DNA of 64,000 nt from an uncultured Planctomycetota bacterium (GCA_963849325.1 CAWKHF010000010.1:288001-352000); one strand, 5' to 3'; numbered from the stretch's first letter, positions 1,492 to 18,844 are shown. Program-made: numbers and translations. The notes: a model not told the origin generated them from the letters alone.

Positions 1492-1629
1492 TGCCAACGA
1501 GCGGCAGCCTCCCGCCGATACATCGCCGTTCCCGAAGAGCGAAAAGATGAGAAATCGAAGATGTTTCGCAGGGCGGAAATATCCTTGACCGCTGCGCAAG
1601 CCTGCGGATAGATAAGGAGAGCCGTGCTA
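992..1629 (+). repeat. Copy 1 of ~640 bp imperfect direct repeat (methyltransferase 3' part plus downstream flank)
   Basis: TCGGCGATCGCGCCTGCTTCGA...GATAAGGAGAGCCGTGCTA recurs at 4987-5623 with scattered substitutions. Confidence 0.9.
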
Positions 1630-1720: not shown

Positions 1721-2348
1721 GTTCGGCGAAGGAGGGCTTCGACGTGGAGGTCTTGATCCGGTCGGCAACCGAAGCAGATCTCGGCGCCGTCCGCGACATC
1801 TACAATTATTACGTCAGTCGCTCCACCTGCACGTTCCAGATCGAGTTGGATACGGAGGCAAAGCGGCTGGCGTGGTTCCGCGACCGCTCACCGTCCCATC
1901 CGGTTATTGTCGCCGAAGTGGCGAGCGCGGTTGTCGGTTGGGCAGCCCTCTCCGCGTGGAACTCGCGCTGCGGTTACTCCCGGACAGTGGAGGCGTCGGT
2001 CTACATTCGCCATGATCTACACCGGCGTGGAGTCGGAATGTCGTTGATGCTCGACCTGATTGAACGAGCGCGTTCAGCCGGCCACCATACAATCATCGGT
2101 GGCGCTTGTACCGAGCAGACCGCGAGCCTGGCTTTGCAAGCGGCGCTGGGGTTTGAGCAGGTGGCGCGCTTTCGGGAGGTGGGGTACAAGTTCGGCCGCT
2201 GGCTCGACGTGGCCTACATGCAGTTATTTCTGGACGGCAAAGATATGCCGAGCAAGACGCTACAGCAGGCCGGCCAGGCGACACAAGGTTAGTCGAGTCA
2301 TCACACGCCAAGCCCGCGTAAGCCGGCTGGTGAGCTTGGTCGGTGGGG
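1721..2348 (+). mobile_element. Putative decayed integron gene cassette (core site GTTCGGC - GNAT ORF - attC-like site)
   Basis: GTTCGGC at 1721 lies just before the RBS and start. Near-complementary GCCGAGC at 2247 opens an imperfect ~100 bp hairpin (GCTACAGCAGGCCGGC ... GCCGGCTGGTGAGC). No integrase in window. Confidence 0.45.
1744..2292 (+). CDS. GNAT N-acetyltransferase, phosphinothricin/methionine-sulfoximine acetyltransferase (Pat/MddA)-like
   Basis: IRSATEADL, IYNYYV..STCTF, TVEASVYI, RRGVG, LGFEQVARFREVGYKFGRWLDVAYMQ motifs; AAGGAGG RBS. Confidence 0.88.
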   Translation: MEVLIRSATEADLGAVRDIYNYYVSRSTCTFQIELDTEAKRLAWFRDRSPSHPVIVAEVASAVVGWAALSAWNSRCGYSRTVEASVYIRHDLHRRGVGMSLMLDLIERARSAGHHTIIGGACTEQTASLALQAALGFEQVARFREVGYKFGRWLDVAYMQLFLDGKDMPSKTLQQAGQATQG

Positions 2349-2357
2349 AGTCTTGTG

Positions 2358-2465
2358 GCGAAAGCCAGGGCGATGTTGGCGAAGCGACTTGCTCGGCACG
2401 ATCTGGCAGTGACAGGCGGCGCTTTGGGAGCGGTGTTGTCCCAGCGGGCGGCGTCGGTCTCTGTG
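2358..2465 (+). pseudogene. Remnant of a paralogous ECF sigma factor gene
   Basis: Translates AKARAMLAKRLARHDLAVTGGALGAVLSQRAASVSV, matching ARARALLAKRLARHGLAVLGGALTEVLSQQAASSCV at ~3220-3327 of the adjacent sigma gene. Confidence 0.7.
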
Positions 2466-2664
2466 CACGACCTCGGGGATGAATTCCACGACCAAGGCCG
2501 TCTGTTCGTTTTCTAGCCGATTGCCGCGGAAAGCATCATGAATCCTCAATGGCGATAGGCCAAACTAACGGTTGAAGTGTTCCGGCGTGCAAAACCGTGG
2601 ATCAAACCGACTGGAGCGGGTAATACCATTGTAGAGGGCGAAGCAGACACGTAAGAGGACTCGG

Positions 2665-4710
2665 ATGGCGACAAGCCAGATGAGTAAGGTCATCCAACAC
2701 CTGCGCAACACCTTGCTGCTGCGTCAAGGGCGGGACCTGACCGATGGACAACTACTGGAGTCATTCGTCAGCTGCCGTGAGCCAGCGGCGCTCGAAGCCC
2801 TCGTGCGCCGCCACGGCCCGATGGTTTGGGGCGTCTGCCGCCGAATCCTCCGCAATCACCACGATGCCGAGGATGCGTTCCAGGCCACCTTCCTCGTCCT
2901 GGTCCGCAAGGCCGCTTCCATTGTGCCCAGAGAAATGGTCGGCAACTGGCTCTACGGAGTGGCCCAGCAGACGGCACTCAAGGCGAGGGCGACGACAGCC
3001 AAGCGGCGGACGAGAGAGCGGCCAGAGACAGAGGCGTCCGAACCCGCCATGACAGAACGAGACTTATCGCAAGACTTGCAACCGCTGCTCGATCAGGAGT
3101 TGAGTCTTCTGCCGGACAAGTACCGAGTCGTAATTGTCTTGTGCGACCTGGAAGGCAAGACTCGCCAGAAAGTGGCCCGACAACTTGGTTGTCCTGAAGG
3201 GACCGTGGCGAGCCGGCTGGCTCGGGCGCGGGCGTTGTTGGCGAAGCGACTTGCTCGGCATGGTCTGGCAGTGTTGGGTGGCGCCCTGACGGAAGTGCTT
3301 TCGCAACAGGCGGCGTCCTCCTGCGTGCCGACTGCGGTGATGAGTTCCACGATCAAGGCCGTGACTCTGGTTGCGGCGGGGCAAGCGGCGACTACCGGCC
3401 TGATCTCGGCCAAGGCAGCTGCTCTCGCAGAAGGAATGGTGAAAACCATGTTGCTGACCAAACTCAAGACGGTGACAGCCGTGCTGCTCGTGCTGGCCAC
3501 ATTCGGATTCGGTGGAGGGCTATACTCGTACCAGCTGGGAGTACAGCAGAGTCCTGCCGTTAAACCGCTCGCTGGAAGCGACAAGGGGCAGAGGGGCAAC
3601 GAGGAAGAAAAAGACCCCGACAGGCAAGCCAAGAAACAGGCCAAACCGAACAAGAACATAGAGGAACAGCAGCTGGAGCAGATACGGGCGGCTGAGGCTA
3701 AGCTACAGGCGGCCGAGGCTGATCTATTGCGGGCCAAGAAAGACGCCATCGCGAAAGAGTTGAAGGCGCTGGAAGGGACGTGGGAAGCTGTCGCTGGCGT
3801 CCGGGATGGGGATAATGTGAATTTCAACGGGGACAAAAAGCTACGGATTACGCTCGGCGCGGATGGAGCGTACACGGTCGAGTGCGGCGGCGAAGTCATC
3901 GCCGGCGGCAAGTGGGATCTGTACCCGTGGCAAAAGCCCAAGGCCGTGGACGATACCACCGCGAACGGCAAGTTAGTCCTCGGCATCTACGAATTGGCGG
4001 GGGACGAATTGCGGTTGTGCCAGGGAATGCCCCACTACAATGGTCCGGTGACGCCCCGAATGGCTCGGCCCACCACATTCTCCTCGAAGCGCGGCAGCAA
4101 GCGCTGGCTTACCACCTTCCGCCGGGAGAAGCCCGAACAGATAGACAAAGGCGTGGAGGGCAAGAGGGTGGACAAGGCGGATGCCGTGGTGTGGGGGAAG
4201 GAGGTCGATGGCCTGCAAGCGGGCGTGGGCCAGCGGCCTGGCAACAACGAAGGCGACGAGGCCAGTGAGACGATACGACTGGTGGTGAAGGTCCGTAATG
4301 TCGGCAAGTTGCCAGTCGCGGTCACATATTCTTCTCAACCCTTCGATGACTTTCCTCCAACGGTACAGAACAAAAGCGGCGAGTTCCTACGGACTTTCAT
4401 GCCCCCATTTGCCCTCTATAAAAGGCGAAATATCGAGGAGACGCTTAAGCCCGGAGAGGAACTCGAATTCGGCAAAAATGAGTCGGCCACAGGCCCGGAC
4501 GAGAAGCTTATCGATCTTCACCCGCCACTACTTGGCGTAGCCGATCCGAAGACCCAACCGAAGCAGCCAGAGGTGGACTTCCCGACCGTATACGCCCCAA
4601 CCGGAGTGTATAAAATCAGCTATAGGGGCTTTATCCATAATCACCCGACGCTCTCAACCGGGGAACTGGGGATCGAAGTCACGACCTGCATAAAGCTACT
4701 GGAGCGCTAA
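2665..4710 (+). CDS. ECF sigma-70 factor with TM helix and C-terminal extension (TIGR03067-like domain plus further domain)
   Basis: TDGQLLESF, RHGPMVWGVCRR, DAEDAFQATFLVL, LPDKYRVVIVLCDLEG, GTVASRLARAR; later ELKALEGTW...GIYELAGDELRLC...RPTTF, typical of planctomycete TIGR03067. Confidence 0.9.
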   Translation: MATSQMSKVIQHLRNTLLLRQGRDLTDGQLLESFVSCREPAALEALVRRHGPMVWGVCRRILRNHHDAEDAFQATFLVLVRKAASIVPREMVGNWLYGVAQQTALKARATTAKRRTRERPETEASEPAMTERDLSQDLQPLLDQELSLLPDKYRVVIVLCDLEGKTRQKVARQLGCPEGTVASRLARARALLAKRLARHGLAVLGGALTEVLSQQAASSCVPTAVMSSTIKAVTLVAAGQAATTGLISAKAAALAEGMVKTMLLTKLKTVTAVLLVLATFGFGGGLYSYQLGVQQSPAVKPLAGSDKGQRGNEEEKDPDRQAKKQAKPNKNIEEQQLEQIRAAEAKLQAAEADLLRAKKDAIAKELKALEGTWEAVAGVRDGDNVNFNGDKKLRITLGADGAYTVECGGEVIAGGKWDLYPWQKPKAVDDTTANGKLVLGIYELAGDELRLCQGMPHYNGPVTPRMARPTTFSSKRGSKRWLTTFRREKPEQIDKGVEGKRVDKADAVVWGKEVDGLQAGVGQRPGNNEGDEASETIRLVVKVRNVGKLPVAVTYSSQPFDDFPPTVQNKSGEFLRTFMPPFALYKRRNIEETLKPGEELEFGKNESATGPDEKLIDLHPPLLGVADPKTQPKQPEVDFPTVYAPTGVYKISYRGFIHNHPTLSTGELGIEVTTCIKLLER

Positions 4711-4928
4711 ACTGCCGCAATTGGGAGCAGGGCCGTCAGCATCAGGTTGAACGGCTTCGCGTACCGCCCGCGTGTAGTGAAAGTGCTTGTCTTGCCCCGG
4801 CCCCAGCCGCGACCGATCTGCTCCTGCGTCGCCAATACCGGGTCACCCATCTTCTTATCGCAATCGACCGCCGACCGCTCCGGCGGCACTGTTGTCACCA
4901 TCCCGCTCCCGACAGAAGGAAAAGGGCG

Positions 4929-4986
4929 TCAGAAAAGGTTTCAGGAACCTTTTTCGATCGAAAAAGGCTCCTGAAACCTTTTCTGA
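4929..4986. repeat. Near-perfect 58 bp palindrome (REP-like, AAAAGGTTTCAGGAACCTTTT family)
   Basis: TCAGAAAAGGTTTCAGGAACCTTTTTCGATCGAAAAAGGCTCCTGAAACCTTTTCTGA is self-complementary except for one pair; it sits exactly at the 5' edge of the methyltransferase duplicate. Confidence 0.85.
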
Positions 4987-5623
4987 TCGGCGATCGCGCC
5001 TGCTTCGAGCAGAAGTCGGTCTTCGACGATTCGCTGATTGGCCCGTTCGATGGAGCGGTATCGCGCTTCGTCCTCCATCACGCGCCGGACCCGGCGGCCT
5101 TCGTTCGCCGCCAGGTTGAACTGCTGCGACCGGGCGGCGTCCTGGTGGCGGCCGACCACACGACGGACCCCGACGCCGCCCGCGCGGCGTGGCACCAGGA
5201 CATCGAGCGCGGACGGGACCACACGCACACCCGCAACCTCACGCCGGGCGAACTCGTGGACCTGCTGGCCGCTGCCGGCTTGATCGACCTGCGTTTGGTC
5301 GAGGCGCCTATTGTTCTGGACTTCGACGAGTGGTTCGACCGAGGCACCCCGGCGGAGACCAAGGAGGCCGTTCGCGCGGATGCTGTCTGGGCCGATGGCC
5401 CGCGGGTTTCAGCCGACGCCGAGAGAAAGCGGAGTGCGGATCGACGGTTGGCTGGCGCTCGTCCGAGGCGTGAAACCCGGGTGATCCCATCGAGCGGCAG
5501 ACCCCCGCGGTTACATCGCCGTTCCCGAGGAGCGAAAAAATGAGAAATCGAAGATGTTTCGCAGGGTCGAGATGTTCCTTGACGGCTGCGCAAGCTTGCG
5601 GATAGATAAGGAGAGCCGTGCTA
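4987..5623 (+). pseudogene. 5'-truncated duplicate of the methyltransferase gene with its downstream flank (copy 2 of direct repeat)
   Basis: Encodes GDRACFEQKSVFDDSLIGPFDGAVSRFVLHH...DFDEWFDRGTPAETKEAVRA; lacks the start and SAM-binding motif I; frame degrades near 5380. Confidence 0.85.
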
Positions 5624-5704
5624 ACATCTCGCGCGAGCGCGCGTGTTCGATAAGCGTTCCACTCGGACGGCGGCAAGCAATTTCAGAAGAGCCTCAAGAC
5701 GCAC

Positions 5705-6015
5705 GCGGCCCAAACGCACCGTCACCTCATCAGCACCCTTCAGCCGCTCGTCCCAAACCACAAGCTCGAACGTGCCGTCGCTCCGTTGCAGCAGCAGTTC
5801 ATGCACGGTGGCCGGCTGCTCCGGGATGGAGTAATGGAGTTGGCCGGGCTTGGCGAGGGAACCCTTATCGGCCAGGGTCGTCGTGAGGTTGTGCAGGTAG
5901 ACGGCGGCTTTGCGCGGCGCGTAGTCCGACTTGAAAAACCCGAAGCTTTGATTGCCACCTTCGTCCGTGCGGTCGCGCAGAAGGTAGACGGCGGTGTAAC
6001 TCCAACCCCGCTTGA
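5705..6015 (-). pseudogene. Fragment of a glycoside-hydrolase-like gene (C-terminal part only)
   Basis: KRGWSYTAVYLLRDRTDEGGNQSFGFFKSDYAPRKAAVYLHNLTTTLAD...VHELLLQRSDGTFELVVWDE is protein-like (end of TIM barrel plus beta domain), has no start, and abuts the stop of the upstream gene. Confidence 0.55.
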
Positions 6016-6026
6016 GCGGACTATCC

Positions 6027-7337
6027 CTACAGAACCTTCCGTGACGGCAGCGCGCGCAGGCCGTTGGCCTCGTCGTCTCCGAGGAACTGCTCCTTGGCCG
6101 GATCCAGATGCAGCTTGCGATTGAGCAACCACGACAGGGCCGCCGCATGGCAGGCGATGTGCGAGCGGCGCATCACCTGCGAGTTGGCTGCCGGACGTCC
6201 ACGCGACTTGACGCAGTCGAAAAAGTTCCGCGCATGGGCCGACACGTCCAGTCCCTTCTCCCGCTTGCCCCCCAGATCCTTCAGCTCCTCTCGGAGCGAA
6301 GCCGGATGCACCTCGATCCCGCCGCTGTCGCCGACCTCGACCCAGCCCTCGTCTCCGACGAACCGCACCGGGCAGGTACCCAGCGATTGCACCCAGCCGG
6401 GACGCTCCTTGAACGGCGTCTTGAGAAAGTCGAGTACGAGTTTGACCCCGTTGGCGTAGCGGGCCGTCACGTTGGTGGCCGACGGCTCGTACTCCACCGG
6501 CATGGTGTCGTCCGCTTTGTTGGCCCACTGGCAGAGATCCACGGTGTGGGCGCCCCAGTCCAGGAGCCGAGCCCCCGAGTCGAAGTCCCAGTAGCCGCGC
6601 CAGCCTCCCTGTACGTATGCCTTGTTGTACGGCCGCCAGGGGGCTGGCCCCAGCCACAGATCCCAGTCCACCACGTCGCGCGGCGGTGTCGGCTCCGCCG
6701 GCAGCCAGGCCGTCTGCACCTGCGGTGTGTACACCGAAGCGTACAGCGTGTGCAGCTTGCCGAGCTTGCCGCTGTGCGCCAGCCGCACGGCCGCCTGGAA
6801 GTTCGCCACGCTGCGACGCTGTGTGCCGGCCTGGAACACGCGCTTCGTCTTGCGAATTGTGTCGTCGAGAGTCTGACACCAGGCGATGGTGAGGCCGCAG
6901 GGCTTCTCGCTGTAAATGTCCTTGCCGGCCCGCGCAGCCAGGATCGACGCCGGCGCGTGCCAGCGGTCGCCGGTGGCGATGAGTACGGCGTCGATGTCGC
7001 GCCGCGCCAGCAACTCGTGGAAGTCGCGGTAGGTCGTGCAGTCCTTGGTCTGGTAGTGGGAGTCCACGAGCTTCTTGCCCGCCTCGCGCCGGCTGGCCTG
7101 CACATCACAGACGGCCAGGCACCGCACGTCGGGCAGCTTGAGAATCGCCTGGAGGTCGTAGGTGCAGCGTGGGCCGAAGCCGATGACACCCAGCGTGATG
7201 CGCTCGGACGGGGCCGTTTTGCCGTCCCGGCCGAGCGCGGCCGCGGGCACGAACCAGGGAGCCGCCAGCGCCGCCCCCGCCGTCGCCGACCGCATCAGCA
7301 CGTCCCGCCGTGTCAGACTATCCTTCGACGTATGCAT
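6027..7337 (-). CDS. Gfo/Idh/MocA family oxidoreductase, Tat-exported
   Basis: GGAGGA RBS; TRRDVLM twin-arginine signal; GVIGFG, DAVLIATGDRWH, YSEKPC, QAGTQRRS, DWGAHTVD. Confidence 0.92.
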   Translation of the reverse strand: MHTSKDSLTRRDVLMRSATAGAALAAPWFVPAAALGRDGKTAPSERITLGVIGFGPRCTYDLQAILKLPDVRCLAVCDVQASRREAGKKLVDSHYQTKDCTTYRDFHELLARRDIDAVLIATGDRWHAPASILAARAGKDIYSEKPCGLTIAWCQTLDDTIRKTKRVFQAGTQRRSVANFQAAVRLAHSGKLGKLHTLYASVYTPQVQTAWLPAEPTPPRDVVDWDLWLGPAPWRPYNKAYVQGGWRGYWDFDSGARLLDWGAHTVDLCQWANKADDTMPVEYEPSATNVTARYANGVKLVLDFLKTPFKERPGWVQSLGTCPVRFVGDEGWVEVGDSGGIEVHPASLREELKDLGGKREKGLDVSAHARNFFDCVKSRGRPAANSQVMRRSHIACHAAALSWLLNRKLHLDPAKEQFLGDDEANGLRALPSRKVL

Positions 7338-7502
7338 GATCGTTTCCTCCGGTCCCCCTGTGCGCTCATTCGACGTGTGGGTCGGTCGGAGCGCCACTTC
7401 TGCTTACGATAATCCCGGCTCCCCATCGCACGCAAGAGAGCAACACCCCATTCGCCCCTTCGAGCGACGTAGTTCCCATCGCTGTCACCCGACCGACGGC
7501 GA

Positions 7503-9296
7503 CTAGCGTAGCATATCCGTCAGCGCTCCGGGCGACCTTACGCCGTCCGTAACGGCGTGGTACGTCGGCGCGTCGGCGGGCAGGAAGGGAGTGAACGGCG
7601 GCATCTCCTCGCGGCCTAGGCGAAGCTCAAGCACGCCCGGCCGGTTGGTCCAGGACGAGCTGTCTTCCAGGGCTTCGTTCAACTCCTCGATGGTGCCCGC
7701 CGAGCCTACCCAGAGGCGGTGAGGGGGACCGAACCCCCGGGCGACCTTGGCCACGGAAATGGGAGAATACCGCGAGCACTCGATCCTCCCCTCGAAGTAG
7801 AGCTGTTGCCGGGTGACACACATGCCGTGCATGCCGTTGTTGAAAACGACGAAGAGAATAGGCAGCTGATGATCGACGGCGGTATGCACCTCGGCGCCGA
7901 GCATCAGGAAGGCACCATCGCCGCAGAAGACCATTGTCCGCGAGCCGCGCGGGGAGCCTATCTGCGCGCCGATGGCCCCGGCGATGGCGTAGCCCATGCC
8001 CCCCATCCCCAGGGCGATCGTGGCGCTGACGTTCGCAGGGATGCGCAGGTAGTGCAGGGCGGCCGCGGCACAGTTGCCGGCGTCGAAGAGCACGTGGCCT
8101 TTCGCGGGCAGGAACGGCTGAAGCATCTCGAGAGCCTGACTCTGTCGCAGATCTCCGGTCATGGGGACCGAGTGCGAACGGCACCTGTCCAGGGGCAGGT
8201 CGGGGGCCAACTCGGGCGTGAAGCGGGTGACGGGCACCGGGACGGGCACTCGGGGAACCACGTAGGCCTGGTCCGCTAACTGATTGAGTTGGTCGAAGAC
8301 GACTCCCGCGTCCGCCTCGATGGACAACGAGGAGCGGACGATGCGGGACACCTCGCCCATGTCGATGTTCACGACGGCCAACCGCTCCGGATGAAGGGCC
8401 TTCTGGATCGGCTGAGCCGTCATCACATTCAGGCCGGTTCCGACCGCGACGATGAGGTCCGCCTGCTCCGCCAGGAACCGATGCGCCGACGGCTCGCCGG
8501 CCACGCCCACGGTTCCCAGGTACAGAGGGTCGTCGTTGGGGAACACCCCCTTACTGGCGAGGGTCGTCGCCGTCCGCACCCCCAGGCGGCGCGCGAACGC
8601 GACGACTGCGGCGGGATTGCTGCACCGGTCCACTCCACTCCCGAGCAGCAGCACGGGTGTCTCGGCCGTGCGGATGGCGTCGAACAGTTTGGCGACCGCA
8701 TCGGCCGGCGCGTACCACAGGCCGTTCAGCTCGTTCAGACGGTCGGGCATCCAGCTGGGTCGTGGGCCGACGTCGCTGTCGAACAGGTCGCGGGGGATCA
8801 GCAGCACGGAGGGACCGGGCCGACCACTCATCGCGGCCGTGACCGCGCAGTCCAGGCACCGCCAGAATTGGCCGGGCTCCGTGATTCGCGCCTGATACTT
8901 GGAGATGGCGGCCCAGAGCCTGTCCGCGTTCACGGATCGACCGATGCCGGAAGAATCTTGAAAGGCGCCTCGACCTTCGAGCCGAGTAGGCGGTTGGCCG
9001 ACGATGGCCAGCATCGGCACCGACTCCGCGAACGCCTCGGCGACGCCCACGGCCAGGTTCATCATCCCGCCACCGGATGTGCTGCAGCAGACCCCCAGAG
9101 TGCGATGCACCCGGGCTCGGCAGTCGGCCATGAAGGCAGCGCCCACTTCGGACTTGGCGCACACGGAGCGGAAGCCCTCGCCGCCCAGCCGATGCACGGC
9201 GTCGTGCAGGTGCTCGATATTGGCGCCGCTGACACCAAACAGGTATCCCAGACCCCAGTCGCGCAAGGTCGTAACCAGAGCTTCTGCCAGTTTCAT
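7503..9296 (-). CDS. Thiamine diphosphate-dependent enzyme (acetolactate-synthase-like acyloin synthase; NzsH/CqsB3/ScyA-type)
   Basis: FGVSGANIE, catalytic Glu in SEVGAAFMAD, STSGGG, ThDP motif GDGAFLM...NNG. Confidence 0.88.
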   Translation of the reverse strand: MKLAEALVTTLRDWGLGYLFGVSGANIEHLHDAVHRLGGEGFRSVCAKSEVGAAFMADCRARVHRTLGVCCSTSGGGMMNLAVGVAEAFAESVPMLAIVGQPPTRLEGRGAFQDSSGIGRSVNADRLWAAISKYQARITEPGQFWRCLDCAVTAAMSGRPGPSVLLIPRDLFDSDVGPRPSWMPDRLNELNGLWYAPADAVAKLFDAIRTAETPVLLLGSGVDRCSNPAAVVAFARRLGVRTATTLASKGVFPNDDPLYLGTVGVAGEPSAHRFLAEQADLIVAVGTGLNVMTAQPIQKALHPERLAVVNIDMGEVSRIVRSSLSIEADAGVVFDQLNQLADQAYVVPRVPVPVPVTRFTPELAPDLPLDRCRSHSVPMTGDLRQSQALEMLQPFLPAKGHVLFDAGNCAAAALHYLRIPANVSATIALGMGGMGYAIAGAIGAQIGSPRGSRTMVFCGDGAFLMLGAEVHTAVDHQLPILFVVFNNGMHGMCVTRQQLYFEGRIECSRYSPISVAKVARGFGPPHRLWVGSAGTIEELNEALEDSSSWTNRPGVLELRLGREEMPPFTPFLPADAPTYHAVTDGVRSPGALTDMLR

Positions 9297-9348
9297 GAGA
9301 GGGCCTTTCCATCGCTTGCCGAATGTGCCGTGTGTCTACTGCTTCCAA

Positions 9349-10350
9349 CTATGCCGGCTTCCAGTGGATGACAGCCGAGGCGGCGAAGTCTCCGGCGTGG
9401 GCAAATCCACCGAGCACGAGATGAGAGTTCGCCTTCAATTGCCCGCTGTCGATGGCCTCCTCGAGGCAGATCGGCAGGGCGGCGCCGAACAGGTTGCCGT
9501 GCCGCTCGAAGGTCGATACGTGTCTTTGCGTTGGCACCTGCAGCGCTTCGCGCCAGTTGCGCAGGAACAGGTTGTTGGGCTGGTTCGTGATGAGCGTGCC
9601 GATCTCACTGGGAGGAAGTTCGGCACGGCGGCAAGCCTCGCGGATGGCCTCCGGGACGATGCGGTTGGCACGGCTCATAATGTGGCACAGCTTCGCCTCG
9701 TTGAAATCCACGGAGGTACATGCCGTGCTCGGCTCCCACCATGCGGTGCCATCGGCACGGACGACAGCCATGTCGCCGGCATACTCGCAATAGTTCTGAT
9801 GCACGACCGCCTTGACCGGCGATTCCCCCGAGGCCACGAGATAGCCCACGCCACAGCCGTCGCCAGGGATGCGGGCCTGCTTGAGCTTGCGGGTCTGTTC
9901 ACTGCCGAACAGACGGCCGGCCGAATTCTGGACGTTGCACAACAGGGCCGTCTTCGCCCCGTGGCAGCTCATCAGCGCCTGGGCCTGGGCGATCATGTAG
10001 ACGAACGAGACGCATCCTCCATTGTGGATGTCGAGGATCCAGCTAGGGCGAATCCCCAGCGCCTTGGCGGCGTCGGCCCCGCAGCCGGTGAACGGCTGGT
10101 CCGGGGAGGTGACGTTGGTCATGAGGATATCAACGTCCTTGTGCAAGTTGAGGTTCAGGCGAGCCGCCAATTTGCGGGCGGCATGGACGATCATCACACT
10201 CGCCGTTTCATCGCGGGAAACGTGATGCCGCTGTTTCACGCCGCGAAACATGAGGGGCGCTCGCTCCGAATCGCTGTTCTGAAAGAAGGAGTTCTCGACG
10301 ATTCGTCGCGGCAGGTAACTGGCCGCGCCAACCAGGCTTACGGTCTTCAT
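9349..10350 (-). CDS. 3-oxoacyl-ACP synthase III (FabH-like; NzsJ/CqsB1-type)
   Basis: Starts MKTVSLVGAASYLPRRIVEN with ATGA overlap to upstream gene; catalytic Cys in NGGCVSF; ITNQPN (Asn replaces the usual His); HGNLFGA; GGFAHAG. Confidence 0.88.
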   Translation of the reverse strand: MKTVSLVGAASYLPRRIVENSFFQNSDSERAPLMFRGVKQRHHVSRDETASVMIVHAARKLAARLNLNLHKDVDILMTNVTSPDQPFTGCGADAAKALGIRPSWILDIHNGGCVSFVYMIAQAQALMSCHGAKTALLCNVQNSAGRLFGSEQTRKLKQARIPGDGCGVGYLVASGESPVKAVVHQNYCEYAGDMAVVRADGTAWWEPSTACTSVDFNEAKLCHIMSRANRIVPEAIREACRRAELPPSEIGTLITNQPNNLFLRNWREALQVPTQRHVSTFERHGNLFGAALPICLEEAIDSGQLKANSHLVLGGFAHAGDFAASAVIHWKPA

Positions 10351-10988
10351 GGCCGACCTCCCATGGTCATGGGCAGCCCGTTGGCATGGCGGTACTCGAG
10401 AATGTGCTTGAGGTTGTCTAGCTCGATCTTGTGGCCCGCGTAGAAGAACGGCCACATGTCCCCCACCCAGACCTTGCGGCCCTTGGGCGACCTGTCCGGG
10501 AACGGGTTGTTGTCGTAGTAGGGGTGCCGGCAGTTGGTCCAGAGCACGACACAGCCGGGCCGGTTGAGCACCAGCTTCGCGGGCACGACGCGCATCAGGT
10601 AGATCATCCACAGTTCGTCGCCCTGGTCCCAGGCGCAGTGGTAATCCACCGTCATCGCCTCGGGGTTGGCGACCACCCGTGTGTAGATCTTCGTGGCGCC
10701 GCCGATGCGGTCGGTGGCAACGACCATCCCGGTTTCGTCCATCGGCGTGAAATCGCGCAGGCTGTACGTCCACTCCTGCAGCGTGTACACATCGGCCAGG
10801 TACTCAAACGCCTTCTCGGGCGGGCAATCGACGTAATCCTGCAGCGAGCAATACTGGCCGTAAACCTCGTCGTGCGGGTAAACGGCGTGCGTCATTTCCA
10901 TCGTCAGATCGGTCATTTCATCCTTGCAGCAGTTCTCGATGCGACGTACGCCGGGTAGGCGGTCGATGGCAGCCGAAATGAGATTCAT
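10347..10988 (-). CDS. SRPBCC/START-fold cyclase, carbazole-synthase (NzsI/CqsB2)-like
   Basis: AAGGAG RBS, 213 aa; DCPPEKAFEYLAD, EWTYSLR, TVDYHCAWDQG, LWMIYLMRV, VVLWTNCRHPYY, GHKIELDNLK; translationally coupled to KAS III. Confidence 0.75.
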   Translation of the reverse strand: MNLISAAIDRLPGVRRIENCCKDEMTDLTMEMTHAVYPHDEVYGQYCSLQDYVDCPPEKAFEYLADVYTLQEWTYSLRDFTPMDETGMVVATDRIGGATKIYTRVVANPEAMTVDYHCAWDQGDELWMIYLMRVVPAKLVLNRPGCVVLWTNCRHPYYDNNPFPDRSPKGRKVWVGDMWPFFYAGHKIELDNLKHILEYRHANGLPMTMGGRP

Positions 10989-11098
10989 CGCGTGTACTCC
11001 TTGTTCGTAACTCGAGCAGTGAAATGGCAGACTTGAGGTCGAAGCGTGATGCCTTGCTAAAGTCTTATATTGCGTCCAATCGAAACTGTGACGGCTTG

Positions 11099-11246
11099 AG
11101 AGTCTGTTCCCGAAGCTCCCCTCTCCCCTGTACTCAGGGGAGAGGGGTTGGGGGTGAGGGGTGAGAAACCCACGAAAAACCCGCCCCCTCACCCCAACCC
11201 CTCTCCCCCGGAGTACCGGGGGAGAGGGGCTTTCGGAACAGACTCT
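11099..11246. repeat. Composite REP-like inverted repeat (CCCCTCTCCCC-GTAC-GGGGAGAGGGG family) in divergent intergenic region
   Basis: Outer arms AGAGTCTGTTCC...GGAACAGACTCT enclose two CCCCTCTCCCC/GGGGAGAGGGG hairpins. Confidence 0.85.
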
Positions 11247-11410
11247 GATATCTCCGATCACCCCACGTAGGACTTCATCAGGCGCGGCCTCATCAAGCGT
11301 GCGCGGCGCCGGGATTGTTCCTGGCGGGCCTGTCACAAGTGATCGCGCGGGGGCTACCAGAGGGTGAAGAACATTCTCGTCATTGCGGATTTCAGACGGC
11401 GGATTGCAGA

Positions 11411-12592
11411 ATGAAGAAGCTACTCCCTGAGCATCTGCTGTCCCGGAAATCCGCCAGGCTCAAGCTGCCCTACTCGCTAACCACTGTCTGGCGACAACAG
11501 CTGCGCTATCTTCCGGCGGTGTTCGCCGTCGCCTTCAGTGCGGTCCTCAGCACCCTGCAGTGCGGACTTCTGGTGGGCATCCTCAACATCGCGGCCCGGC
11601 CGATCCACCGCAGCGATGCCCACGTCTGGCTGGCTTCTCCCGGCGTGCGTGGCCTGGGGTTTGGCCGTCCCATCCCTCTGGCCTGGAAGACCCGCCTGCT
11701 GTCGCAGCCGGAGGTAGAGCGAGTGGAAGAGTACCTGTGCGGCTTTGCCCAGTTCCAGAGGCCCGACGGCAGCACCGACCAGTGCAGCGTCGTCGGCATG
11801 AGGCTGGAGGCGGGCTCCCTGGGAGCGCTGGCGGACCTTACGCCGGAGATGCGCCAGAGCCTGACGCGGCCGGGCACGGCCGTGGTGTACGAGTCGGAAC
11901 TGCCGCTCCTGGGACTGCGGGATACGCCGGGAGAGGTCGGAGAGGTGGAGGGCCACCGTGTGGAGATTGTCGGCACCCTTCGGGGAGGCGACGGGGCAGG
12001 GTTGACTCCCGGGCTGTACTGTTCGCTGCGAACCGCTCGTGGGCTGTTGGCCTCGGTGTCGGGGCGACAGACGACTTACCTGTTGGCCCGGTGCCATGCT
12101 CCCGAACAAGGCCCTCTCCTGGCCCGAAAGCTGGAGGCGAGCTATCGAGACATGGACGCGATGACGAGCGGAGAGCTGGCCTGGCGAACCCAGTGTTACT
12201 GGCTGATCAAGACCCGGGCAGGGCTCGTCCTCGGCTTCGCCGCGGCGCTGGGCCTGATGGTCGGCGCGGTGGTCACTTCGCAGACGCTCTACGGGGCGAG
12301 CGTGGCCTCGCTCCGCGAGTACGCGGTCCTTCTCGCCCTGGGCATCCCACGTTGGCGGCTGCGGCGGCTGGTGCTCGGCCAGTCCTTCTGGGTCACTCTG
12401 GCCGGGCTCACGCTGGCCCTGCCGCTGACCGTGATCCTGGCCCACATCGCCCGCCCGATGAACGTGGAAGTGCTCCTACCGCCCTGGCTCGTGGCCGCGG
12501 TCGGAGGCCTTACGCTGGCGGTCGGCCTGCTGTCGGGGACCACCGCCCTGCGCTCGCTCCGCCAGGCTGATCCCGCCACGTTGCTGCGTTAA
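11411..12592 (+). CDS. ABC exporter permease (FtsX/DevC-like), copy 1
   Basis: RYLPAVFAVAFSAVL, periplasmic domain, SQTLYGA...REYAVLLALG, three C-terminal TM helices, DPATLLR; start uncertain. Confidence 0.85.
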   Translation: MKKLLPEHLLSRKSARLKLPYSLTTVWRQQLRYLPAVFAVAFSAVLSTLQCGLLVGILNIAARPIHRSDAHVWLASPGVRGLGFGRPIPLAWKTRLLSQPEVERVEEYLCGFAQFQRPDGSTDQCSVVGMRLEAGSLGALADLTPEMRQSLTRPGTAVVYESELPLLGLRDTPGEVGEVEGHRVEIVGTLRGGDGAGLTPGLYCSLRTARGLLASVSGRQTTYLLARCHAPEQGPLLARKLEASYRDMDAMTSGELAWRTQCYWLIKTRAGLVLGFAAALGLMVGAVVTSQTLYGASVASLREYAVLLALGIPRWRLRRLVLGQSFWVTLAGLTLALPLTVILAHIARPMNVEVLLPPWLVAAVGGLTLAVGLLSGTTALRSLRQADPATLLR

Positions 12593-12607
12593 AGAGGAAA
12601 AAGGACC

Positions 12608-13324
12608 GTGAAGACACTAATCGCCCGTAACCTGACGCGCAGCTTCGGCAGCGGCGACACCCGCGTGGTCGCCCTGGACGATGTCTCTCTGGAGCTGCGC
12701 CCTGGGGAGTTCTCGCTGCTCATGGGGCCGTCGGGGTCGGGCAAGTCCACTCTCCTGGCCGTGCTCTCCGGGTTGGTGCCGCCCGACAGTGGCCAGGTCG
12801 TCGCCCTGGGCCAGAAGGTGTGGGCCCTGTCACCTCTCCAACGAGAGGAATTCCGCCGCCAATCGACCGGATTTATCTTTCAGGGCTACAACCTGTTCCC
12901 CGCCTTGACCGTCCGCGAGCAACTGGAGATGGTTTTGCTCTGGGCAGTCGGGGTGCCGCCCGACGAGGCCGAGCACAAGGTGGAGGCCATGCTGGACCTC
13001 CTGGGCCTGGCCGAGAAAGCCGACTGCCTCCCCGAGCAATTGTCCGGCGGCGAGAAGCAACGAGTGGCCATCGCCCGCGCCCTGATCAAGGATCCCCAAC
13101 TCCTCTTCGCCGACGAACCCACCAGCGCCCTCGACTGGCAGCGCGGCCGGCAGATCGTCGAGCTGTTGCAGGCCAGCGCCCGCGAGCGGGGGGCAGTCCT
13201 GGTCGTGGTCTCCCACGACAACCGGCTCCTCCCCTATGCCGACCGCGTGCTCCACCTCGAGGACGGCTGCCTCGATCGGCCGGAAGCGCCGGCTGGACCC
13301 GAACCCCACAAGAGGAGTCCATGA
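12608..13324 (+). CDS. ABC exporter ATP-binding protein (LolD/DevA-like), copy 1
   Basis: GPSGSGKS, LSGGEKQRVAIARAL, FADEPTSALD, VSHD. Confidence 0.93.
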   Translation: MKTLIARNLTRSFGSGDTRVVALDDVSLELRPGEFSLLMGPSGSGKSTLLAVLSGLVPPDSGQVVALGQKVWALSPLQREEFRRQSTGFIFQGYNLFPALTVREQLEMVLLWAVGVPPDEAEHKVEAMLDLLGLAEKADCLPEQLSGGEKQRVAIARALIKDPQLLFADEPTSALDWQRGRQIVELLQASARERGAVLVVVSHDNRLLPYADRVLHLEDGCLDRPEAPAGPEPHKRSP

Positions 13325-14373
13325 AAGTCTTCCGTCCCCGCACGTTGGTTTGGCTGCTGGCCGTGGCCGTGGTGCTGGTCGGCCTGAGCGGCGCCGCCGG
13401 CGTTTTCCGCCTGCCGCTGGCCCTGTTCGGCTGCAGGCAGCCGGATTCGGAACGGCCCGGCCTGCAAGGCGTGGAGTGCCTTGGCCGGGTCGATGTCGAG
13501 GGCGGCCTGCTCGAACTCGCTCCTGTCCGCTCGGGTCGTGTCGTGGCAGTGAGCGTCCACGAGGGAGAGGCGGTGCCTGCAGGGGCGGTGTTGCTGCGAC
13601 TGGATGAGCAGCCGGCCCAACTGCTCGTTCAGCAGGCCCGCGCGGCCCAGCAGGTGGCCGAGACCCAGGTCGCTCTTGCTGAGGAGGCGGCCAGGCTGCA
13701 CACCTTCCGGGTGGCCGGCCAGGAGGCGCTTGCCCGGGCGGCTCGGAATCGCGTGCCGGCCGCCCGCGAGCAGATGGAGCGTAAGGAACGACTCTTCGAC
13801 CAGGGACTGATCGACAAGGAGGAGAAGGCCGCCGCCCGGCAAGAGGTGAAAACGCTGGAGTCCCTGGCGGAAGCTGAGGAGAAGCGGGTGGAGGGCTTGC
13901 GCGGCGAGAACCCTTGTTTGCGCGTTCAGCAGGCCAGGGCGGAGCTGGCGCGGGCGGAGGCGCTGCTGGCGGAGGCGCGGTACGCTCTGGACCAGTGCGT
14001 GGTGAAAGCGCCCGTGGCAGGCAGTGTGCTCCGGCTGCGCTGCAGCGCCGGCGAGGTCATCTCACCGCAGCTGGCCGTAATCGTGTTCGCCCCGGCGCGG
14101 CCTCGTATCGTCCGTGTCGAGGTGGAGCAGGAGCTGATCCATCGGGTCGAGGTCAGTCAGCCCGCCGTGGTGAGGGACGAAATGCACCCGGAACGATCCT
14201 GGAACGGCCGGGTCGTCCGGATGAGCGACTGGTACTCCGACAATCCCACCATCCCCCGCCGGATGGCAAGGTTCACGGACATCCCGACGGTGCAGTGCGA
14301 GATCGCGCTGGACCCCGGACACCCGCCATTGCGCATCGGCCAGCGGATGACGGTGCTTCTTGGCGGCCCGTGA
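13321..14373 (+). CDS. HlyD/DevB-like membrane fusion protein, copy 1
   Basis: ATGA overlap with ATPase; N-terminal TM, GRVVAVSVHEGEAVPAGAVLLRLD lipoyl half-motif, coiled coil, KAPVAGSV, LRIGQRMTV. Confidence 0.88.
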   Translation: MKVFRPRTLVWLLAVAVVLVGLSGAAGVFRLPLALFGCRQPDSERPGLQGVECLGRVDVEGGLLELAPVRSGRVVAVSVHEGEAVPAGAVLLRLDEQPAQLLVQQARAAQQVAETQVALAEEAARLHTFRVAGQEALARAARNRVPAAREQMERKERLFDQGLIDKEEKAAARQEVKTLESLAEAEEKRVEGLRGENPCLRVQQARAELARAEALLAEARYALDQCVVKAPVAGSVLRLRCSAGEVISPQLAVIVFAPARPRIVRVEVEQELIHRVEVSQPAVVRDEMHPERSWNGRVVRMSDWYSDNPTIPRRMARFTDIPTVQCEIALDPGHPPLRIGQRMTVLLGGP

Positions 14374-14755
14374 CCCAGCCGTGACTGCAGCAACGGGTCG
14401 TGGGACTCGTGCTGGTCGGGCATAGCTCGCTGCAGCGCATCGAAGGTCTTCCGCCTTCGCTCGCATGGGCTGCGGCAACCCGGCTGGGCATCCGTCTCCA
14501 AATCGCATCCGGTCTGTCTTCTCTTGACCACATCGGTGAGGACGAACCCGCCGTTCTCCGTATGGTCGCCTCGTTCTCCCTCTCGATTTGCGAAGCGATT
14601 GTCACAGCTCCCCGTTCAGGTCGAAGAAGAGATGGAGCGGAAACGCTTCCTCCCCTGATAACCACACGCTTGGGAGATGGGCATGGCGCCGGCCTCCAGC
14701 CGCGCCGGGTCCGTGCATCGTCTTGCTTCTTGGATTCTGAACAACGGAAGGTCCC

Positions 14756-17503
14756 ATGAGCCACATGCTACTGAGTGTCCCGAGTCCACTGCTGTCCTCC
14801 GCAACGAGCGGATCGCCGGCGCCGGCCCCCTCCGCGGAACGAGAGCCGCGCCGTCAGGGGCAGACCGAGGGACATCCATACGCGCGCTGCGTCAACCCCT
14901 ACCTGGCCGACCTGCTGAATAAGCTGTGGCTGGACAAGCGGTTCGTGAGCGGCGAGGGCTGTGAGCTAATCGACGACACGGGCCGGCGCTACCTCGACGC
15001 CGTGGCAGCCTACGGGGCACTGCCCTTCGGCTTCAATCCTCCCGAGATCTGGCGCAGCTTGCTGGAGGTGCAGCGGAGCGGCGAGCCGAGCTTCGTGCAG
15101 CCCTCGTTGCTGGATGCGGCCGGCGAGCTGGCCGAACGCTTGCTGGCCGTGGCGCCGGCGAACCTCCGCTACGTGACGTTCGCCAACAGCGGCGCCGAAG
15201 CGGTCGAGGCCGCCGTCAAGATGTGCCGGGTCGCCACCGGGCGGCTGGGCATCCTGGCCACGAATGGCAGCTTCCACGGCAAGACCCTGGGGGCGCTGTC
15301 CGCGACCGGCAACGCCCATTACCAGGACGGCTTCGGCGCTCCGGCCGGCGATTTCCGCCACATCCCCTTCGGCGATGCGGCCGCGCTGCGCCGCGAGCTG
15401 GAGGCCCATCCGGGCTACTATGCCGCCTTCCTGGTCGAACCGATCCAGGGCGAGGGCGGCGTGATCGTGCCGCCGCCGGGCTATCTCGTCGAGGTGCGCG
15501 ACATCTGCACCCGCGCGGGCGTTCTCCTGGTGCTGGACGAGATTCAGACCGGGCTGGGACGAACCGGCGCCCTGTTCGCCTGCGAGGCCGAGGACGTTCA
15601 GCCGGATGTCCTGACGCTCGCCAAGGCCCTGGGCGGCGGACTGCTCCCGATCGGGGCCGTCCTCAGCAGCGAAAAAGCCTACTCCGAGACGTTCGCCCTC
15701 AAGCATTCCTCGACGTTCGCGGCCAACGCCCTGGCCTGCCGAGCCGGGCTGGCCGCCCTCGACCTGCTGACGCGCGACGACGGCGCCCTGGTGCGGCGCG
15801 TGGCTCGCAACGGCGCCCGTCTCCAGGAAGGCTTGCTGGCCTTGCAACGGCGCTTTCCGCAGTTGATCGCCGAGGTGCGCGGCCGGGGCTTCTTGCTCGG
15901 CCTCCGCTTCACCACCGATCGTGCTCTCTGGCCGGAGGGTCTGCTGGGCGTGGCGCTCGAACAGGAGTTCTTTACGCCCGTGTTCGCCAGCTACATGCTC
16001 AACGTGGAAGCGGTTCGCGTCGCCCCGACCCTCAACGGCAAGGCGGTCCTCCGCATCGAACCGGCGTTGACGATGTCCTGGCCGCAGTGCCAGCGGTTGC
16101 TGTCCGCGCTGGAGCGGGCGCTGACCGTGTTCGCGGCCGGAGACACGGGGCGGATTCTGGCATCGATCCTGGAAGGTCGGCCCTGCCCGCCGGCGCGGTC
16201 GATGCCGCTGCCGAAGCCGTGGCTTGAGGTCAAGCTCCGTCCAGCCGAACGCCGCTTCGCCTTCCTGATGCACCCCCTCGACTATGCCAACGCCGTCGAT
16301 TTCGATCCGTCGCTGGCCTACCTCGATGCGTCCTCTCTGGAGACGGTGGTGCGCAAGGTCGCTTCGTTCGTGGAGCCGTTCGTGGTCAGCCACGGGCGTG
16401 TGGTGTCGGCGACCGGCGAGACGATCTACGGCGAGTTCATCACCCTGCCGCGCACCGCCGAGGAGCTGACGCGGATGCGTCGCAAGGAGGCGATCGAGTA
16501 CGTCCGAGGGGCGCTGCACCTGGCGCGAGACCGCGGCGCTCAGCTCGTCGGGCTGGGGGCGTTCACCTCCGTGGTGACGCTCGGCGGCCGAGCGGTGGCG
16601 GAAGAGGGAGTGCCGATCACCACCGGCAATTCGTACACGTCGGTCGCGTCCGCCGAGGCCATCCGCAAGGCCCTGGCGCTGGTGGGTCGCGGGGAGAAGA
16701 CGCCTCCTACAGCGGCCATCATCGGAGCGACCGGCGCCATCGGCCGTACCCTGGCCCTGCTGCTCGCCGAGGACGTGGGCCGGCTCATTTTGGTGGGCAA
16801 CCCGGACTCCTCCGCCAAGTACGTCCGCGAGCGCTTGCTGGCGACGGCCGGCGATGTCGTCCGCTTTGTCAGCGCCCGGCACGCCGAGGGTTCGACCTTC
16901 CGGCCGGGCACCTTCGCCGCCCAGTTGCTCGCTCATCTGCCCGGTGGCGTGGTCGAGCAAGCCGCGATCGACGAGGTCGTCAGCCGGCTGGAACAGACCG
17001 GCTGGTTGGCGATCACGCAGGAGACGGCCGCCGCCGTGCGCCAGGCTCGGGTGGTGGTCACGGCGACCAGCGCCACCGGCACCGTCGTGCGGCCGGAAGA
17101 CCTGCGCCGGCGGGCGGTGGTTTGCGATGTCTCGCGGCCGGCCAACGTCGGCCAGGAGATCCTCGAAACGCGGCCCGACGTGCTGGTGATCGACGGCGGC
17201 GTCATCGCGGCGCCCGCCGGATCGGCCCTCAGCCAATTCGGACTGGGCGACGGCCTGATCTACGGCTGCATGGCGGAAACGATGATGCTCACCCTGGCCG
17301 GGCACCTGCGCAACACCAGCCTCGGCACCGACCTGACGCCCGAGACGCTGCACCTGTTGCGGACGCTGGCCGACAAGCATGGCTTCCACGTCGCCAAGCT
17401 ACGCAGCTTCGGCCGGCCGCTGGAAGAAGCCGACTTTCACCGCTTCCGCTCGGCGGAGGCTTCCAACAGGAGTGACAACCGTCTGTCACGAGCGGCATCC
17501 TAA
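14756..17503 (+). CDS. Class III PLP aminotransferase fused to acyl-ACP (thioester) reductase-like domain (TamH-like)
   Basis: N-half: YLDAVAAYG, NSGAEAVE, FHGKT, EPIQGEGG, DEIQTGLGRTG, AKALGGG. C-half: FAFLMHP, LGAFTSVV, TTGNSYT, GATGAIG, DVSRP, IDGG, GCMAETM, as in cyanobacterial acyl-ACP reductase. Confidence 0.85.
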   Translation: MSHMLLSVPSPLLSSATSGSPAPAPSAEREPRRQGQTEGHPYARCVNPYLADLLNKLWLDKRFVSGEGCELIDDTGRRYLDAVAAYGALPFGFNPPEIWRSLLEVQRSGEPSFVQPSLLDAAGELAERLLAVAPANLRYVTFANSGAEAVEAAVKMCRVATGRLGILATNGSFHGKTLGALSATGNAHYQDGFGAPAGDFRHIPFGDAAALRRELEAHPGYYAAFLVEPIQGEGGVIVPPPGYLVEVRDICTRAGVLLVLDEIQTGLGRTGALFACEAEDVQPDVLTLAKALGGGLLPIGAVLSSEKAYSETFALKHSSTFAANALACRAGLAALDLLTRDDGALVRRVARNGARLQEGLLALQRRFPQLIAEVRGRGFLLGLRFTTDRALWPEGLLGVALEQEFFTPVFASYMLNVEAVRVAPTLNGKAVLRIEPALTMSWPQCQRLLSALERALTVFAAGDTGRILASILEGRPCPPARSMPLPKPWLEVKLRPAERRFAFLMHPLDYANAVDFDPSLAYLDASSLETVVRKVASFVEPFVVSHGRVVSATGETIYGEFITLPRTAEELTRMRRKEAIEYVRGALHLARDRGAQLVGLGAFTSVVTLGGRAVAEEGVPITTGNSYTSVASAEAIRKALALVGRGEKTPPTAAIIGATGAIGRTLALLLAEDVGRLILVGNPDSSAKYVRERLLATAGDVVRFVSARHAEGSTFRPGTFAAQLLAHLPGGVVEQAAIDEVVSRLEQTGWLAITQETAAAVRQARVVVTATSATGTVVRPEDLRRRAVVCDVSRPANVGQEILETRPDVLVIDGGVIAAPAGSALSQFGLGDGLIYGCMAETMMLTLAGHLRNTSLGTDLTPETLHLLRTLADKHGFHVAKLRSFGRPLEEADFHRFRSAEASNRSDNRLSRAAS

Positions 17504-17561
17504 TTGGTCGGATGTCGTGTCCTGGTCCCTGAATCCACTCGTAATTCCAAGGAGATAGTCA

Positions 17562-18755: not shown

Positions 18756-18844
18756 TTTCGTTCGATTCGAGACGGTGAGTCGGAATACGAGCTATCCCCG
18801 AGCGTGTAGGTAAAGCCCCCCGGAGAAGGAAGCGAGTTGGACCT

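Follow-up and report, generated by a model that had tools for sequence, protein, structure and literature searches.

The stretch of DNA analysed here, which is called the window, comprises 64,000 nucleotides from an uncultured Planctomycetota bacterium (GCA_963849325.1 CAWKHF010000010.1:288001-352000). It contains a triad of genes encoding a cyclase with a Bet v1-like fold, a condensing enzyme of the beta-ketoacyl-acyl carrier protein synthase III type (KAS III; the window's enzyme is called the KAS below) and a thiamine diphosphate (ThDP)-dependent carboligase (Table 1). These are the same three protein families that build the carbazole nucleus in Streptomyces. All three genes are co-directional. 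The TGA of the cyclase gene and the ATG of the KAS gene share an ATGA overlap (10350-10347), which points to translational coupling, and a gap of 52 nt separates the KAS stop codon from the ATG of the ThDP enzyme gene. Thus, the coordinates and the overlap bear out an earlier reading of the DNA (the original prediction), which had described three tightly packed genes with the cyclase and KAS III coupled in this way. With intact frames, a Shine-Dalgarno-like sequence and the ATGA coupling, the genes look functional. Longer open reading frames (ORFs) of 329 and 474 aa with GTG starts were rejected because they span a dispersed repeat or the upstream gene. The 213-residue length of the cyclase fits that of its homologues, which are mostly 212–217 aa long with a query coverage of 93–100%. 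A scan of positions 5800-11500 gave no promoter-like sites and one terminator-like site, which lies within the oxidoreductase gene that follows the triad. A search of sequencing runs for the locus listed no RNA run, and the DNA runs had small shares only (0.05–0.07).

Table 1. Features of the window, with the triad first.
Feature	Length	Coordinates	Strand	Start and stop
CqsB2/NzsI-like cyclase, Bet v1-like fold	213 aa	10347..10988	-	ATG 10988, TGA 10347
KAS III-like condensing enzyme or acyltransferase	333 aa	9349..10350	-	ATG 10350, TAG 9349
ThDP-dependent carboligase, CqsB3/NzsH type	597 aa	7503..9296	-	ATG 9296
Shine-Dalgarno-like AAGGAG, 8 nt before the cyclase ATG (sequence inspection)		10997..11002	-	
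GFO/IDH/MocA oxidoreductase		7397-6027	- (same strand as triad)	
FtsX/ABC/HlyD genes		11315-14373	divergent from triad	
TamH-like class III aminotransferase-reductase fusion	915 aa	14756-17503		
Palindromic, G+C-rich repeat element	~150 bp	11099-11246		
Duplicated segment, two copies	~640 bp	4987-5623 and 992-1629		
Protein with N-terminal sigma-70 regions	681 aa	2665-4710		

The cyclase matches the carbazole cyclase CqsB2 (PDB 6ipv) over residues 18–204 with an E-value of 6.4e-54 (phmmer), and the next PDB match has an E-value of 0.022. In BLASTP, it is 48% identical to the CqsB2 orthologue of locus L093 (E=1e-61), and identities across the cqs-type loci range from 44 to 48%. An AlphaFold model, built from a 38-sequence alignment, has a predicted local distance difference test score (pLDDT) of 91.0 and a predicted template modelling score (pTM) of 0.89. 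When Foldseek was used with this model, 6ipv_A came first (E=9.3e-20, template modelling (TM) score 0.71/0.69, 46% identity), so that the CqsB2 structure (6ipv/6ipw) is the best fold match. The matches that follow are Bet v1-like proteins, including TcmN ARO/CYC (2rer); TcmN, PYR/PYL and similar proteins are alike in fold only, at 12–18% identity. No Pfam or NCBIfam family scored above its cut-off with the cyclase (Polyketide_cyc2, 17.4 against 27.4 bits). A reading as ScyC, the cyclase of scytonemin biosynthesis, was rejected at 23.7 bits against the cut-off of 400 for NF035924.

A scan of one genome per species gave at least 599 pattern matches, and at least 590 of these encode a relative; the best 80 loci were kept. 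According to a 2020 review, CqsB2 catalysis involves a water held by Tyr144 and Tyr172, Glu105, and a second water held by His206 and Glu209 (PMC7466098). In the alignments, Tyr144, Tyr172, His206 and Glu209 correspond to Y130, Y158, H186 and E189 of the window cyclase, and Glu105 corresponds to D93. All five window residues are invariant in 81/81 sequences, that is, in the 80 related loci and the window. The original prediction had named Y116, W120, Y130, Y158 and H186, all of which are present, and had stated that their spacing agrees with the CqsB2 active site. This was right, as Y130, Y158 and H186 align with Tyr144, Tyr172 and His206. Similarity search, alignment and structure comparison of the cyclase, with the E-value, 48% identity and TM score of 0.71 given above, uphold the kinship, and the active-site residues are conserved apart from Asp for Glu105. 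Consequently, judged by sequence and predicted fold, the window cyclase is a true CqsB2 homologue and a putative catalyst of cofactor-free carbazole cyclisation.

The homology does not extend to membership in the characterised group. Two changes relative to CqsB2 run through the whole family (81/81): Glu105 is replaced by Asp93 and Pro131 by His117. In the cyclase tree, whose root is arbitrary and which carries long-branch warnings, the window protein falls into a clade with six Planctomycetota sequences (support 98), adjoining Myxococcota clades (support 90). The representative nearest to CqsB2, P0126, lies in a separate, long-branched group. In agreement with the tree, the window cyclase is 48% identical to the CqsB2 type and 59–86% identical to members of its own branch, which is called the core branch here.

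The ThDP-dependent enzyme has the Pfam domains TPP_enzyme_N/M/C and a GDG-x24-NN motif from residue 459. Over ~580 aa, it is 53 and 57% identical to the CqsB3-type orthologues of loci L105 and L106, respectively. A reading as acetolactate synthase was rejected, since the enzyme scores 234.3 bits with TIGR00118 against 538.35 and falls under all acetolactate synthase cut-offs. All trees were built in the 'quick' mode of IQ-TREE with support from the Shimodaira–Hasegawa-like approximate likelihood ratio test, and long-branch warnings apply to them. In the ThDP tree, all triad enzymes form one clade (support 100), apart from the other ThDP enzymes of the genome. Within it, the actinobacterial, Bacteriovoracaceae and anammox partners form a subclade (support 99). 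The window enzyme belongs to the other group (support 88), as do the two CqsB3-type orthologues and the partners from planctomycetes, myxobacteria and proteobacteria. Identity and tree thus confirm the proposed membership among the CqsB3/NzsH-type acyloin synthases. The donor for NzsH is indole-3-pyruvate (PMC9822442), and from the clade placement we infer indole-3-pyruvate as donor and pyruvate as acceptor for the window enzyme. The nearest solved relatives are BbmA and CsmA (PDB 8x3x and 8x3z; E=2.6e-60 and 1e-42), which are also the top solved match, ahead of acetolactate synthases, for the core-type ThDP enzymes of Mycobacterium and Streptomyces. A literature search on BbmA/CsmA found nothing relevant to their role.

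The KAS matches Pfam ACP_syn_III_C at 62.5 bits. A reading as the housekeeping FabH was rejected (TIGR00747, 93.9 against a cut-off of 292.1 bits), and a true FabH is encoded elsewhere in the genome (347.9 bits). The putative catalytic residues are Cys113, Asn256 and Asn286. In the end-to-end alignment with the CqsB1-type orthologue, to which the KAS is 25% identical (25–27% across the cqs-type loci), the window's LITNQPN faces LITHQPN, and Cys113 and Asn286 are kept. The replaced residue is the catalytic His of FabH, as the end-to-end alignment with Thermus FabH (1ub7) indicates. FabH has the same thiolase-type KAS III fold with Cys and Asn aligned, but the Cys-His-Asn triad of FabH and of the CqsB1 type in loci L092–L095 is Cys-Asn-Asn in the window. 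Among the core members, Asn256 (as TNQPN) and Asn286 are each found in 80/80 and Cys113 in 79/80, with one gap.

When the KAS tree is rooted on the genome's own FabH, every cyclase-linked KAS falls into one clade (support 97), in which the CqsB1 type (support 99) is sister to the window's core type (support 100), with long branches between them. The proposed KAS III therefore stands as far as the fold and the cyclase-linked clade are concerned, but it is no orthologue of CqsB1/NzsJ, given the 25% identity, the His-to-Asn change and the sister position. As the catalytic His is replaced by Asn, the KAS reaction may differ. This replacement is the main uncertainty of the present analysis, and the condensation step may be altered. 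The predicted complex of the KAS with the cyclase scored 0.27 against a mark of 0.32.

The carquinostatin and neocarazostatin triads of Streptomyces (CqsB1/NzsJ, CqsB2/NzsI and CqsB3/NzsH) have the same three adjoining protein families as the window. They also share with it the Tyr/Tyr/His/Glu set of the cyclase, the group in the ThDP tree and the superclade of cyclase-linked KAS III enzymes. Four loci (L092–L095) represent a distinct cqs type. The cyclase of L093 is in essence CqsB2 (446.2 bits over 190 aa, E=1.3e-133), and that of L095 is a close relative (331.8 bits). As the cluster representative of CqsB2, P0143 was rejected (157.7 bits against 225.7 for P0126). A search with P0126 found a match in 38 of 401 genomes of the genus of L022, a Streptomyces record. 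The window differs from the cqs-type loci in gene order (cyclase-KAS-ThDP as against KAS-cyclase-ThDP), in the Cys-Asn-Asn of the KAS where theirs is Cys-His-Asn, and in the cyclase, where Asp and His replace Glu105 and Pro131 of CqsB2. Unlike the cqs system, for which CqsB5, CqsB6 and CqsB7 are also listed (PMC7466098), the window triad lacks an adjoining acyl carrier protein (ACP), priming KAS III, aminotransferase, prenyltransferase and hydroxylase, and its host is a planctomycete. The scytonemin enzymes ScyA and ScyC are alike in logic, as a ThDP enzyme makes a beta-keto acid from aryl pyruvates and a dedicated cyclase follows (PMC9822442). That pathway has no KAS III step, unlike the window, and the ScyC score given above is far under its cut-off.

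A second comparison is with the core triads of Mycobacterium, Nocardia, Streptomyces, Bacteriovoracaceae and an anammox metagenome-assembled genome. Their cyclases are 59–66% and their KAS enzymes 41–47% identical to those of the window, with the TNQPN signature and the same catalytic residues. Here, the gene order is ThDP-cyclase-KAS and the ThDP partner is of the other subclade, 28–37% identical to the window enzyme. These triads often occur with an aminotransferase, P450, an extracytoplasmic function (ECF) sigma/anti-sigma pair, MMPL and O-methyltransferases. Since two ThDP subclades are found among the core partners, the cyclase-KAS pair works with more than one ThDP lineage. By identity and tree placement, the window module is a core-type cyclase and a core-type KAS combined with a CqsB3/NzsH-like ThDP enzyme, and the core branch, with its Cys-Asn-Asn KAS and Asp93/His117 cyclase, is distinct from the characterised Streptomyces branch.

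The best 80 loci belong to five phyla, with cyclases 59–86% identical to that of the window. By record title, they comprise 55 Actinomycetota, 7 Planctomycetota, 7 Myxococcota (plus 2 'delta proteobacterium'), 6 Bdellovibrionota and 3 Pseudomonadota. All three genes are present in 78 of these 80, and the other two (L027 and L051) are cut by contig ends. The order ThDP-cyclase-KAS is found in 61 loci, and the window's order, cyclase-KAS-ThDP, in 18 loci (Planctomycetota, Myxococcota, Hoeflea, Aquabacterium and one Bdellovibrionales). When 1.84 billion cluster representatives were searched exhaustively with HMMER, no more than 160 clusters matched at E<=0.001. These clusters include natural KAS-cyclase fusions (P0128, P0211 and P0218) and one KAS-cyclase-short-chain dehydrogenase fusion with the dehydrogenase at the C-terminus (P0260), all of which keep HQPN. 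In P0161 and P0181, a ThDP C-terminal domain is apparently joined to the cyclase N-terminus, or gene calls have been merged.

The genes beside the triad were counted in 81 loci; the counts are approximate because genes were roughly called. A class I/II aminotransferase is found in 33/81 and a P450 in 24/81, and these neighbours resemble those of carbazole clusters. A zf-HC2 anti-sigma factor adjoins the triad in 16/81, an ECF sigma factor in 12/81, an O-methyltransferase in 9/81 and an AMP-binding enzyme in 7/81. MMPL is found in 10/81; in addition, the two planctomycete relatives nearest to the window have a divergent MMPL copy that follows the triad directly (L001, 13469-15766; L002, 13541-15913). 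None of these neighbours adjoins the triad of the window, where the GFO/IDH/MocA oxidoreductase takes the place of those MMPL copies.

Homologue clusters of NzsJ/I/H are listed for Streptomyces cattleya, Sorangium cellulosum and Scytonema, and a wide distribution is described (PMC7466098). The original prediction had stressed a host outside the Actinobacteria. The genome is indeed that of a planctomycete, yet with Sorangium and Scytonema already on that list, a triad outside the Actinobacteria is not new in kind. A literature search, which left subscription journals largely outside it, found no paper that deals with a planctomycete triad of this kind, with the Mycobacterium or Nocardia members of the core branch, or with a KAS III of the Cys-Asn-Asn type.

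Within the phylum, the distribution of the triad is very patchy. The cyclase is single-copy in its own genome (8.16 Mb, 14 contigs, 84.7% complete). It was found in 0/400 other Planctomycetota genomes sampled evenly across the phylum, in 0/10 genomes of the same genus (64–97% complete), in 1/14 other genomes of the same family and in 0/15 of the same order. The one positive locus, L082, lies within L006 and is identical to it in every letter. By record title, the nearest relatives of each of the three proteins are Planctomycetota, the cyclases being 77–86% identical. For each protein, identity is highest in Planctomycetota, followed by Myxococcota and Burkholderiales and then by Actinomycetota, and the same relative ranking of the three fits movement as one unit. 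When the DNA of the ten congeners was searched with positions 2000-18000 of the window, nothing was found for 7500-11000. The same search matched the oxidoreductase gene (6024-7350) at 83–88% in three congeners and 14460-18000 at 87% in one. No clean empty insertion site was seen in the congeners, as the flanks of the shared segments are not common to them. Because of the patchy distribution, the triad was most likely gained horizontally, as one unit, by a planctomycete lineage. This agrees with the acquisition that had been considered possible, as far as distribution goes; the base composition is not unusual, as set out below.

In view of the homology, the conserved catalytic residues, the linkage and coupling of the genes and the natural KAS-cyclase fusions, we consider it probable that the triad forms a small-molecule module complete in itself, a homologue of the Streptomyces triad that makes the carbazole nucleus, and we infer a carbazole-type product. 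The chemistry that the original prediction quoted, in which the ThDP enzyme joins two keto acids, KAS III adds an acyl unit and the cyclase closes the ring, matches the published account (PMC7466098). In the window, the ThDP enzyme would decarboxylate indole-3-pyruvate, supplied by a general aminotransferase, and join it to pyruvate, as NzsH does. The KAS would load an acyl or 3-hydroxyacyl group from ACP or coenzyme A (CoA) onto Cys113 and condense it with the keto acid as the latter is decarboxylated, so that an unstable intermediate, an acylated indole, would be formed. The coupled cyclase would then close and aromatise the third ring (ring A), using water-mediated acid-base pairs of Tyr130/Tyr158 and His186/Glu189 together with Asp93. 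The expected product would be a 1-alkyl-2-methyl-carbazole catechol or ortho-quinone, or a close analogue. Since CqsB1 and CqsB2 accept 3-hydroxymyristoyl-CoA (PMC7466098), a long-chain product is conceivable; lipocarbazoles are long-chain carbazoles from a mycolate actinomycete (PMC7466098).

Several observations weigh against this assignment. The KAS has an identity of only 25% with the CqsB1 type and Asn in place of the catalytic His, and the cyclase lies outside the CqsB2/NzsI group with its family-wide Glu105-to-Asp and Pro131-to-His changes. The donor keto acid is assigned solely from the clade placement of the ThDP enzyme and is the second uncertainty after the Asn-for-His KAS. No ACP, aminotransferase, P450 or methyltransferase adjoins the window triad, and the small ORFs near it have no Pfam match, so that no ACP was found among them. 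With no dedicated ACP, priming KAS or aminotransferase beside the triad, the precursors would come from primary metabolism. As for horizontal gain, the G+C content of the triad (0.647, against 0.651 for the window) and its G+C content at third codon positions (0.81–0.86) are not unusual and equal those of the neighbouring genes; the transfer, if any, was therefore not recent, or the donor was alike in composition.

A further possibility, which we put forward tentatively, concerns the core triad as a whole. Rather than just a further carbazole antibiotic cluster, it may represent an old module in its own right that has been transferred repeatedly, and it may make a single conserved compound derived from indole, lipophilic and redox-active, whose role is physiological: that of an antioxidant in the membrane, for example, of a signal linked to stress or of a lipid for export. 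One candidate for this compound is a carbazole catechol or quinone with a long alkyl chain, for which the fatty acid synthase would supply the acyl chains. Such a role fits the MMPL exporters, fatty-acyl-AMP-ligase-like genes and ECF sigma/anti-sigma pairs that relatives often have. If it is true, the Asn-for-His change would mark a new variant of KAS III catalysis.

The same enzyme logic could act on another aromatic donor, such as phenylpyruvate or 4-hydroxyphenylpyruvate, and give a bicyclic or tricyclic aromatic that is not a carbazole. The separate, conserved branch of the cyclase with its fixed Asp93 and His117, the different subclade of the KAS and the pairing of actinobacterial, Bacteriovoracaceae and anammox core members with the more distant ThDP subclade all speak for such a shift, and the adjoining aminotransferases do not reveal which amino acid is used. 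However, the window ThDP enzyme itself groups with the CqsB3/NzsH type at 53–57% identity, where indole-3-pyruvate is the donor (PMC9822442). Moreover, CqsB2 ring closure depends on the nucleophilic C2–C3 pi-system of the indole (PMC7466098), which a plain phenyl ring does not have. A different donor is therefore regarded as unlikely. The exchange of the catalytic His bears on another alternative, in which the KAS is an acyltransferase that, for example, O-acylates the acyloin with no decarboxylative carbon–carbon condensation, while the Bet v1-like protein catalyses some other cyclisation or serves mainly as a binding chaperone; the product would then be an acylated acyloin, a lactone or an ester. 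Asn256 replaces the FabH-type His in all 80 core members, whereas the CqsB1-type and fused forms keep it. KAS III-like enzymes also catalyse varied reactions, and the CqsB1 product rearranges spontaneously to indole-containing esters (PMC7466098). Yet Cys113 and Asn286 are kept, and all cyclase-linked KAS enzymes are monophyletic with the genome's own FabH as the outgroup. The cyclase retains every ring-closure residue, invariant across five phyla, which is hard to square with a loss of cyclisation. For these reasons, we hold this alternative to be quite improbable.

It could also be argued that the triad is what is left of a transferred cluster, silent or in decay, with no present function in the genome, as it has none of the tailoring or supply genes that accompany the triads of many relatives and was not found in the congeners searched. 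This is very improbable, since the frames are intact and full length and the catalytic residues, the Shine-Dalgarno sequence and the coupling are preserved. Furthermore, the third-position G+C content of its codons equals that of the host, and the closest relatives, at 77–86% identity, keep the same three genes. A module of the carbazole type is the reading that we prefer.

The neighbouring genes of the window were considered as parts of this module. The GFO, FtsX and TamH-like genes were rejected, as none has a match in the loci of the 80 relatives. The ABC ATPase was rejected because its matches are weak (28–42% identity) and non-adjacent; HlyD was not queried. When the locus of the congener G409 is aligned, the block shared with the window extends to 19540. 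This block (14460-19540) is 87% identical in G409, which is without the triad, and therefore the TamH-like block is not part of the triad unit.

Three other elements lie in the same region. The palindromic, G+C-rich element of Table 1, which separates the divergent FtsX gene from the start of the cyclase gene, has 29-nt terminal inverted repeats and internal GGGGAGAGGGG/CCCCTCTCCCC hairpins. More than 20 copies at 83–95% identity are listed in the own genome and further copies occur in several congeners, so that the element looks like a dispersed repeat resembling a miniature inverted-repeat transposable element or a repetitive extragenic palindrome. The duplicated segment has 90% identity between its two copies in the window; congener copies are weaker (69–74%), and the ORFs in 4787-5886 have no Pfam match. 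The 681-aa protein has an N-terminal ECF-type sigma-70 region 2/4, followed by a long extension without a family match, and its N-terminal part has many paralogous copies in the own genome and in congeners.

To our knowledge, actinomycetes and one cyanobacterium are the known sources of bacterial carbazoles, and the ring-forming triad has been studied in Streptomyces only. The present analysis reveals a much more conserved branch of the triad, which has members in five or more phyla and 590 or more species and has a KAS III partner with a changed catalytic residue. The planctomycete version is the barest, as it consists of the three genes and lacks tailoring genes, and it is therefore a clean candidate for expression in a heterologous host. 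Should its product be a carbazole, the taxonomic range of carbazole chemistry would be wider, and the family would offer biocatalysis new cyclases that need no cofactor as well as new indole-pyruvate carboligases. Otherwise, the cyclase and its Cys-Asn-Asn KAS would define new chemistry.

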